DNA of 64,000 bases from the NCBI RefSeq assembly GCF_003334305.1, contig NZ_QOWS01000007.1; one strand, given 5' to 3'. Shown here piece after piece: positions 45,216-46,838 of this stretch. Every line of letters starts with the position of its first letter. Position 1 is the stretch's first letter. The notes beneath the pieces are model-generated. The model had not been told where the DNA came from. It saw only the letters and a program-made list of their open reading frames with translations, and ran no database searches. Made by a program: the position numbers and the translations under genes. The DNA comes from Escherichia coli (GTDB taxonomy: Bacteria; Pseudomonadota; Gammaproteobacteria; Enterobacterales; Enterobacteriaceae).

Positions 45216-46838
45216 ATGAATACTCTCCCAGAACATTCATGTGACGTGTTGATTATCGGTAGCGGCGCAGCCGGACTTTCACTGGCGCTACGCCTGGCTG
45301 ACCAGCATCAGGTCATCGTTCTAAGTAAAGGCCCGGTAACGGAAGGTTCAACATTTTATGCCCAGGGCGGTATTGCCGCCGTGTTTGATGAAACTGACAG
45401 CATTGACTCGCATGTGGAAGACACATTGATTGCCGGGGCTGGTATTTGCGATCGCCATGCAGTTGAATTTGTCGCCAGCAATGCACGATCCTGTGTGCAA
45501 TGGTTAATTGACCAAGGGGTTTTGTTTGATACCCACGTTCAACCGAATGGCGAAGAAAGCTACCATCTGACCCGTGAAGGTGGACATAGTCACCGTCGTA
45601 TTCTTCATGCCGCCGACGCCACCGGTAGAGAAGTACAATCCACGCTGGTGAGCAAGGCGCAGAACCATCCGAATATTCGTGTGCTGGAGCGCAGCAACGC
45701 AGTTGATCTGATTGTTTCTGACAAAATTGGCCTCCCGGGCACGCGACGGGTTGTTGGCGCGTGGGTATGGAACCGAAATAAAGAAACGGTGGAAACCTGC
45801 CACGCAAAAGCAGTGGTACTGGCAACCGGCGGTGCGTCGAAGGTTTATCAGTACACCACCAATCCGGATATTTCTTCTGGCGATGGCATTGCTATGGCGT
45901 GGCGCGCAGGCTGTCGGGTTGCCAATCTCGAATTTAATCAGTTCCACCCTACCGCACTGTATCACCCACAGGCACGCAATTTCCTGTTAACGGAAGCACT
46001 GCGCGGCGAAGGCGCTTATCTCAAGCGCCCGGATGGCACGCGTTTTATGCCCGATTTTGATGAGCGCGGCGAACTGGCCCCGCGCGATATTGTCGCCCGC
46101 GCCATTGACCATGAAATGAAACGCCTCGGCGCAGATTGTATGTTCCTCGACATCAGCCATAAGCCCGCCGATTTTATTCGCCAGCATTTCCCGATGATTT
46201 ATGAAAAATTGCTCGGGCTGGGGATTGATCTCACACAAGAACCGGTACCGATTGTGCCTGCTGCACATTATACCTGCGGTGGTGTAATGGTTGATGATCA
46301 TGGGCGTACGGACGTCGAGGGCTTGTATGCCATTGGCGAGGTGAGTTATACCGGCTTACACGGCGCTAACCGCATGGCCTCGAATTCATTGCTGGAGTGT
46401 CTGGTCTATGGCTGGTCGGCGGCAGAAGATATCACCAGACGTATGCCTGATGCCCACGGCGTCAGTACGTTACCGCCGTGGGATGAAAGCCGCGTTGAGA
46501 ACCCTGACGAACGGGTAGTAATTCAGCATAACTGGCACGAGCTACGGCTGTTTATGTGGGATTACGTTGGCATTGTGCGCACAACGAAGCGCCTGGAACG
46601 CGCCCTGCGGCGGATAACCATGCTCCAACAAGAAATAGACGAATATTACGCCCATTTCCGCGTCTCAAATAATTTGCTGGAGCTGCGTAATCTGGTACAG
46701 GTTGCCGAGTTGATTGTTCGCTGCGCGATGATGCGCAAAGAAAGCCGGGGGCTGCATTTTACGCTGGATTACCCGGAACTGCTCACGCATTCCGGTCCAT
46801 CGATCCTTTCCCCCGGCAATCATTACATAAACAGATAA
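45216..46838 (+). CDS. nadB: L-aspartate oxidase
   Basis: 540 aa; FAD fold [12 protein letters not shown]. Confidence 0.95.

Follow-up and report, generated by a model that had tools for sequence, protein, structure and literature searches.

Tail-to-tail overlaps between bacterial genes, and their consequence for where transcription can terminate, have been known since 2007, when Lillo & Krakauer described pairs of real coding sequences on opposite strands that share their 3' ends (PMC2174442). Their census put the number of convergent overlaps in E. coli at 58, with the 4-bp overlaps CTAA, TTAA, CTAG and TTAG forming the modal class, and the accompanying analysis predicted terminators embedded in the partner's coding sequence for 23 of the 116 E. 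coli genes in such overlaps. Convergent excludons, a concept that comes from Listeria, are opposite-strand neighbours whose transcripts overlap at their 3' ends (PMC12288877). Within E. coli itself, mscL and arfA converge tail to tail, an arrangement found in Enterobacteriaceae, and a 3' UTR of the pair is complementary to the 3' coding sequence of the partner (PMC10070815). Overlapping bidirectional terminators, finally, serve convergent genes with overlapping transcript ends (Ju et al. 2019, as that work is summarised in bioRxiv 10.1101/2022.10.23.513370).

Four convergent pairs of this kind, nadB/trmN, csiE/hcaT, mltF/tadA and yfiM/kgtP, lie in a 64-kb stretch of E. coli DNA (the whole stretch analysed, referred to here as the window). 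Their overlaps are, with good probability, ordinary short tail-to-tail overlaps of real, conserved genes, which arose as by-products of lost spacers and not as dedicated regulatory devices. The genes and overlaps concerned are the following, in positions of the window.

45216..46838, + strand: nadB coding sequence, L-aspartate oxidase, 540 aa, stop TAA at 46836-46838; K-12 2710420-2712042
46823..47560, - strand: trmN (yfiC, trmN6) coding sequence, tRNA1-Val m6A37 methyltransferase, 245 aa, stop TAA at 46823-46825
46823..46838: nadB/trmN overlap, 16 bp, from the ORF ends
347..1627, + strand: csiE coding sequence (RefSeq), K-12 end 2666715
1619..2758, - strand: hcaT coding sequence (RefSeq)
1619..1627: csiE/hcaT overlap, 9 bp, TCAGCATGA, in a phase unlike that of the other three pairs
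30597..32153, + strand: mltF coding sequence (RefSeq)
32150..32653, - strand: tadA coding sequence (RefSeq)
32150..32153: mltF/tadA overlap, 4 bp, TTAA
58924..59247, + strand: yfiM coding sequence (RefSeq)
59244..60542, - strand: kgtP coding sequence (RefSeq)
59244..59247: yfiM/kgtP overlap, 4 bp, CTAA

The first-pass annotation had placed tail-to-tail overlaps at these four sites, and the open reading frames and stop codons of the window, together with the RefSeq annotations of EC11 and K-12 MG1655, bear this out. Specifically, every pair consists of two opposite-strand coding sequences that share their 3' ends, and the same four overlaps are annotated both in EC11, which is 100% identical to the window over positions 44000-49000, and in K-12 MG1655. 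Small indels relative to both strains are apparent, as an 18-bp offset between the window and EC11 upstream of the csiE/hcaT junction, despite the identity over 44000-49000, and as a 116-bp shift in the window-to-K-12 offset between csiE and kgtP. With a 5-kb query, the nadB/trmN region is found at no less than 95% identity in 5,426 of 5,426 complete E. coli genomes (over at least 80% of the query in 5,425), and the 44000-49000 region is single-copy in essentially all of them. Both members of each pair are real genes: sequence conservation of NadB and TrmN extends to the very C-terminus in 79 species, TrmN relatives are detected down to about 40% identity, and RefSeq assigns named products to the six remaining genes. 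Because stop codons alone set a tail-to-tail overlap, re-annotation of start codons is unable to abolish it; the stop positions are unambiguous, and the refutation that the first-pass annotation had offered, corrected stop positions that remove the overlap, is therefore inapplicable.

The overlaps, their conservation and their coding logic are directly visible in the genomes compared. On the TrmN side, the 16-bp overlap comprises the codons Y-L-F-M and the stop, plus the last base of the preceding F codon, while on the NadB side it comprises Y-I-N-R and the stop, plus the last base of the preceding H codon, and the two frames align at their third codon positions throughout (46838 minus 46823 = 15). 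The cross-species comparison covered the nadB/trmN junction and took the trmN locus from 80 species representatives, all labelled Enterobacteriaceae save one apparently mislabelled contig; 79 loci were scored. In every representative locus nadB lies directly downstream of trmN in convergent orientation, and the overlap measures 16 bp in 76 of the 79 Enterobacteriaceae species. Of the others, two have 8 bp and one has 12 bp; these three exceptions stop elsewhere, consistent with nadB being in another frame there. One contig, labelled Chryseobacterium sp. 18061, carries an Enterobacteriaceae-type trmN/nadB locus with a TrmN that is 81% identical and a 16-bp overlap, and its label probably reflects contamination or a mislabelled assembly.

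This constancy has a simple basis in the TrmN protein, whose tail reads FYLFM-stop in 78 of the 79 species. In the nadB frame, the antisense of this tail permits only [Y/H][I/M][N/K][R/K], a pattern to which all observed NadB tails conform, and the first stop available to nadB is the antisense of Phe-Tyr (TTY TAY -> TAR); a TTT codon in trmN goes with a TAA stop in nadB, and TTC with TAG. Variation in the NadB tail is thereby limited to what synonymous trmN changes allow, and the NadB residues immediately before it are free to vary. As the complement of Phe-Tyr always gives nadB a stop, any genome that retains both the TrmN tail and the frame is held to a 16-bp overlap. Many TrmN relatives at 40-55% identity also have the FYL motif, in most cases two residues short of the C-terminus and independently of the neighbouring genes, and the motif therefore belongs to the TrmN protein, not to the locus. 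Judged by this codon-level comparison, the 16-bp overlap across the family appears fully explained by the five-residue tail of TrmN, an explanation that is new here; besides protein constraint, its family-wide conservation is also compatible with selection on the arrangement.

More distant relatives indicate how the arrangement came about. The homologous-protein search returned only TrmN relatives of at least 71% identity, and outgroups were drawn from a representative search and contig look-ups. One of these (L089, with a TrmN of 51% identity) has the gene order grcA-srmB-trmN/nadB-rpoE as in E. coli, with a 70-bp spacer and no overlap between the convergent genes. This spacer (3257-3326) holds an 8-bp GC palindromic hairpin, AGGGCGCA...TGCGCCCT, with an 11-nt loop, a palindrome that may represent an ancestral shared terminator since lost by Enterobacteriaceae. 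In a second distant relative, a transporter gene separates trmN from nadB, and in two further ones rpoE directly follows trmN and nadB is absent at the locus. Taken together, the four distant relatives suggest that the overlap is derived, the result of spacer loss, and that the TrmN tail then held it in place across Enterobacteriaceae.

Convergent overlaps are, moreover, frequent. The window contains 11 convergent pairs of coding sequences, 4 of which overlap. The background rate was taken from four 50-kb regions of K-12, which were counted by eye and hold only 27 convergent pairs.

K-12 300-350 kb: 6 convergent pairs, 0 overlapping
K-12 900-950 kb: 6 convergent pairs, 2 overlapping (amiD/ybjS 4 bp, ybjD/ybjX 4 bp)
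K-12 1800-1850 kb: 8 convergent pairs, 2 overlapping (cho/ves 41 bp, nudG/ynjH 35 bp)
K-12 3300-3350 kb: 7 convergent pairs, 2 overlapping (yhbQ/yhbS 14 bp, yrbL/mtgA 4 bp)

Overall, 6 of these 27 pairs overlap (about 22%), which corresponds to 6 per 200 kb or about 30 per Mb, and by hand calculation the 4 of 11 in the window do not differ significantly from this K-12 background (binomial P ~0.2, Poisson P ~0.13). Local clustering of overlaps had been considered, as the count of 58 per genome would make the window about fivefold enriched, and was dropped after 6 of 27 pairs were found to overlap in 200 kb of the current K-12 annotation. The four overlaps in the window are thus unremarkable and of an ordinary, already known kind, with about one convergent pair in five overlapping.

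With regard to termination, the first-pass annotation had held that such pairs cannot have separate intrinsic terminators. This is correct in that no intergenic terminator is possible, but it goes too far in general, since a gene's own terminator can sit inside the coding sequence of its partner (PMC2174442). Around none of the four junctions did consensus scans in the relevant orientation yield intrinsic-terminator-like sites beyond what shuffling predicts, and no embedded intrinsic terminator, meaning a GC-rich hairpin with a U tract within about 100-200 nt past the stop, was found there. When the 150 nt that follow each stop codon were folded, z-scores ranged from +0.3 to -2.05, RNAalifold across the 79 species detected essentially no conserved structure in the nadB and trmN 3' extensions (-3.3 and -0.9 kcal/mol), and the rut-like excess of C over G past the stops is modest and not decisive. 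Two structural candidates at nadB/trmN were considered individually, one of them a local hairpin.

46913..46939, + strand: predicted 10-bp GC-rich hairpin (from folding) inside the trmN coding sequence, about 75-100 nt past the nadB stop

This hairpin was rejected as a terminator or protective element, as no U tract follows it and other genera among the 79 species do not preserve it; a long-range GCCGGGGG/CCCCCGGC pairing downstream of trmN was rejected as a structural element, being likewise not conserved across the 79 species.

No Rfam families were found at the four junctions. Elsewhere in the window, Rfam matches mark another antisense transcript, AsrC, the antisense RNA of the rseC mRNA (41802-42633, +, 511 bits), as well as the ohsC antitoxin RNA beside shoB (35316-35392, +), the GlmY sRNA (25971-26118, -) and the rncO leader (38804-39018, -). 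A further match, to the ES036 (CssrF) sRNA (49100-49142, -), lies just downstream of srmB in the gap of the convergent pair srmB/yfiE, and published bicyclomycin data give Rho regions antisense to both of these genes.

Published data document transcript overlap for all four pairs, transcript ends inside the partner for csiE and kgtP, Rho dependence on the tadA and kgtP strands, and double-stranded RNA at yfiM/kgtP. Specifically, all four pairs appear as convergent excludons in the ExcludonFinder map of MG1655 (NAR 2025), their transcripts overlapping by RNA-seq in half or more (at least 50%) of the 58 transcriptomes (PMC12288877). That the full-length mRNAs of each pair should be mutually antisense, as the first-pass annotation had proposed, follows from the overlapping stops and agrees both with this excludome listing and with mapped Term-seq ends (PMC7815308). 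The individual sites are as follows.

1674 (K-12 2666762), + strand: 3' terminus of csiE mRNA by Term-seq, 47 nt beyond the csiE stop codon and, in antisense, 56 nt inside hcaT (PMC7815308)
59193 and 59162 (K-12 2724397 and 2724366), - strand: two 3' termini by Term-seq on the strand of kgtP, 51 and 82 nt beyond its stop codon and within yfiM (PMC7815308)
59223..59245, both strands: p19-captured RNase III duplex of 21-mers, labelled 'kgtP yfiM', at the yfiM/kgtP junction (among the entries listed in PMC7373196)

The 3' ends on the kgtP strand have read counts of about 128,000 and 229,000, compared with about 1,700 for csiE (PMC7815308). The end at 59193 lies a few nucleotides downstream of a strong GC-rich hairpin and that at 59162 lies at the 5' side of another, and a stable kgtP 3'-UTR fragment antisense to yfiM could be behind these abundant ends. 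The bicyclomycin data place one Rho region antisense to mltF, 290 nt past the tadA stop (K-12 2697064, score 9.6), and one antisense to pssA, 706 nt past the kgtP stop (K-12 2723742, score 19) (PMC7815308); as the latter is inside pssA on the kgtP strand, kgtP read-through must cross all of yfiM. A strong canonical intrinsic terminator with an 8-bp stem and a T-rich tail also lies between pssA and yfiM (58883-58903, +). The p19 data contain a second duplex deeper inside yfiM, and among the entries listed, yfiM/kgtP alone of the four pairs shows RNase III-cut double-stranded RNA (PMC7373196). Neither the Term-seq and bicyclomycin tables (PMC7815308) nor the p19 entries listed (PMC7373196) contain nadB or yfiC, and the published transcript record found for nadB/trmN consists of the RNA-seq-based excludome listing. 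From this one list and the other three pairs, we infer that the transcript anatomy of nadB/trmN is like theirs.

The model that we favour from these observations starts from spacer loss: the nadB frame extends into the final trmN codons on the opposite strand, and the FYLFM-stop of TrmN fixes where nadB stops. Loss of the spacer leaves no room for an intergenic terminator, and each mRNA would continue untranslated into the coding sequence of its partner as antisense RNA. Transcripts would then be ended inside the partner mainly by Rho and subsequently trimmed back to available hairpins, which would result in 3' overlaps that range from tens of nucleotides to a few hundred. In cells that transcribe both partners, the overlap could pair and be cleaved by RNase III, and polymerases could collide. 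The overlaps themselves would be neutral or nearly so, the product of spacer loss and protein constraint. Regulatory interference in these pairs, which the first-pass annotation had raised as mutual interference, is possible; any effect for nadB/trmN is probably small.

One alternative is that the overlaps are selected excludons, kept since antisense pairing or polymerase collision makes expression mutually exclusive, for example of nadB versus trmN or yfiM versus kgtP. The listing of all four pairs points in this direction, as do the 16-bp overlap kept across Enterobacteriaceae, the duplex captured at yfiM/kgtP (among the entries listed in PMC7373196) and the E. coli precedent of mscL/arfA (PMC10070815). 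As a class, excludons are also more syntenic and have skewed expression ratios in single cells (PMC12288877), which leaves room for some selected function. However, the TrmN protein tail fully accounts for the conservation, neither nadB/trmN 3' extension holds conserved RNA structure, no functional link between the partners is evident and no pair-specific expression trade-off was found in the literature. Nor is membership of the class distinctive: with about one convergent pair in five overlapping, the overlapping pairs sampled elsewhere in K-12 are all in the excludome list too, which suggests that such a listing is an almost automatic consequence of negative or very short spacing. Mutually exclusive expression as the reason for the overlaps is thus unlikely.

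A different proposal, which derives from SEnd-seq, is that convergent polymerases halt each other at a stem-loop in the junction, independently of Rho, so that the junction acts as a collision-driven bidirectional terminator. Rho-independent bidirectional terminators have been described as prevalent between convergent E. coli genes (bioRxiv 10.1101/2022.10.23.513370), GC-rich hairpins do occur near the kgtP 3' ends inside yfiM, and the spacer of the distant relative with the same gene order holds a shared palindrome. Yet scans, folds and RNAalifold revealed no stem-loop shared across the gene ends; specifically, the nadB/trmN, csiE/hcaT and mltF/tadA junctions have no shared hairpin at or across them, and at nadB/trmN there is no conserved structure either. 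Both nadB and trmN are weakly expressed, which also counts against collision as the terminating event. The model works best for highly expressed pairs (bioRxiv 10.1101/2022.10.23.513370), and termination downstream of tadA and kgtP is sensitive to bicyclomycin (PMC7815308). As such, collision-driven termination is a distinctly unlikely account of these junctions.

A more specific version of selection would hold that spacer loss itself was favoured, with the overlap coupling NAD biosynthesis, through NadR-repressed nadB, to the m6A37 modification of tRNA-Val through trmN. If this were true, derepression of nadB would lower trmN expression in cis, or the reverse; we consider such coupling highly improbable. 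That the overlaps are annotation artefacts, with one gene of a pair spurious or a sequencing error mimicking a stop, is close to inconceivable and found no support, given that conservation of both reading frames reaches the final residue in 79 species, the K-12 and EC11 annotations are concordant, the region is present in all 5,426 complete E. coli genomes and stop positions are independent of gene-calling choices. Ordinary overlap through spacer loss and protein constraint is therefore the reading that we retain. It carries a caution, namely that a gene overlap can be deeply conserved and yet have no regulatory role, and it makes the four loci cheap and reasonable test cases for the cost or the regulatory effect of a forced 3' antisense overlap.

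Set against the systems described to date, the four pairs are closest to the convergent overlaps of Lillo & Krakauer (PMC2174442), from which nothing essential differs. The TTAA and CTAA overlaps fall into the modal class, an origin by stop-codon loss or ORF extension fits, and terminators were already placed inside the partner coding sequence in that work; the 16-bp case is four codons longer in the same phase and is explained codon by codon. With convergent excludons (PMC12288877) they share opposite-strand neighbours and 3' transcript overlap, but mutual suppression defines that class, whereas the pairs here are placed in it by transcript overlap alone, and classic excludons combine long antisense extensions with functionally opposed genes. 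The convergent, complementary arrangement likewise recalls mscL/arfA (PMC10070815), where an effect of the arfA RNA on mscL was measured, whereas the four pairs are known by overlap and not by regulation. Finally, the overlapping bidirectional terminators of Ju et al. 2019, as summarised in bioRxiv 10.1101/2022.10.23.513370, are intergenic, built on a shared stem-loop and Rho-independent, in contrast to four pairs that have no spacer, no shared or conserved stem-loop and termination that is Rho-sensitive where tested. The type of overlap and its consequence for terminators are thus already known, as are the four exact pairs from the 2025 map of overlapping transcription; to these, the present comparison adds the conservation of the nadB/trmN overlap in 76 of 79 species, its explanation by the FYLFM tail, the absence of conserved structure from both nadB/trmN 3' extensions and the hairpin in the 70-bp spacer of a distant relative.
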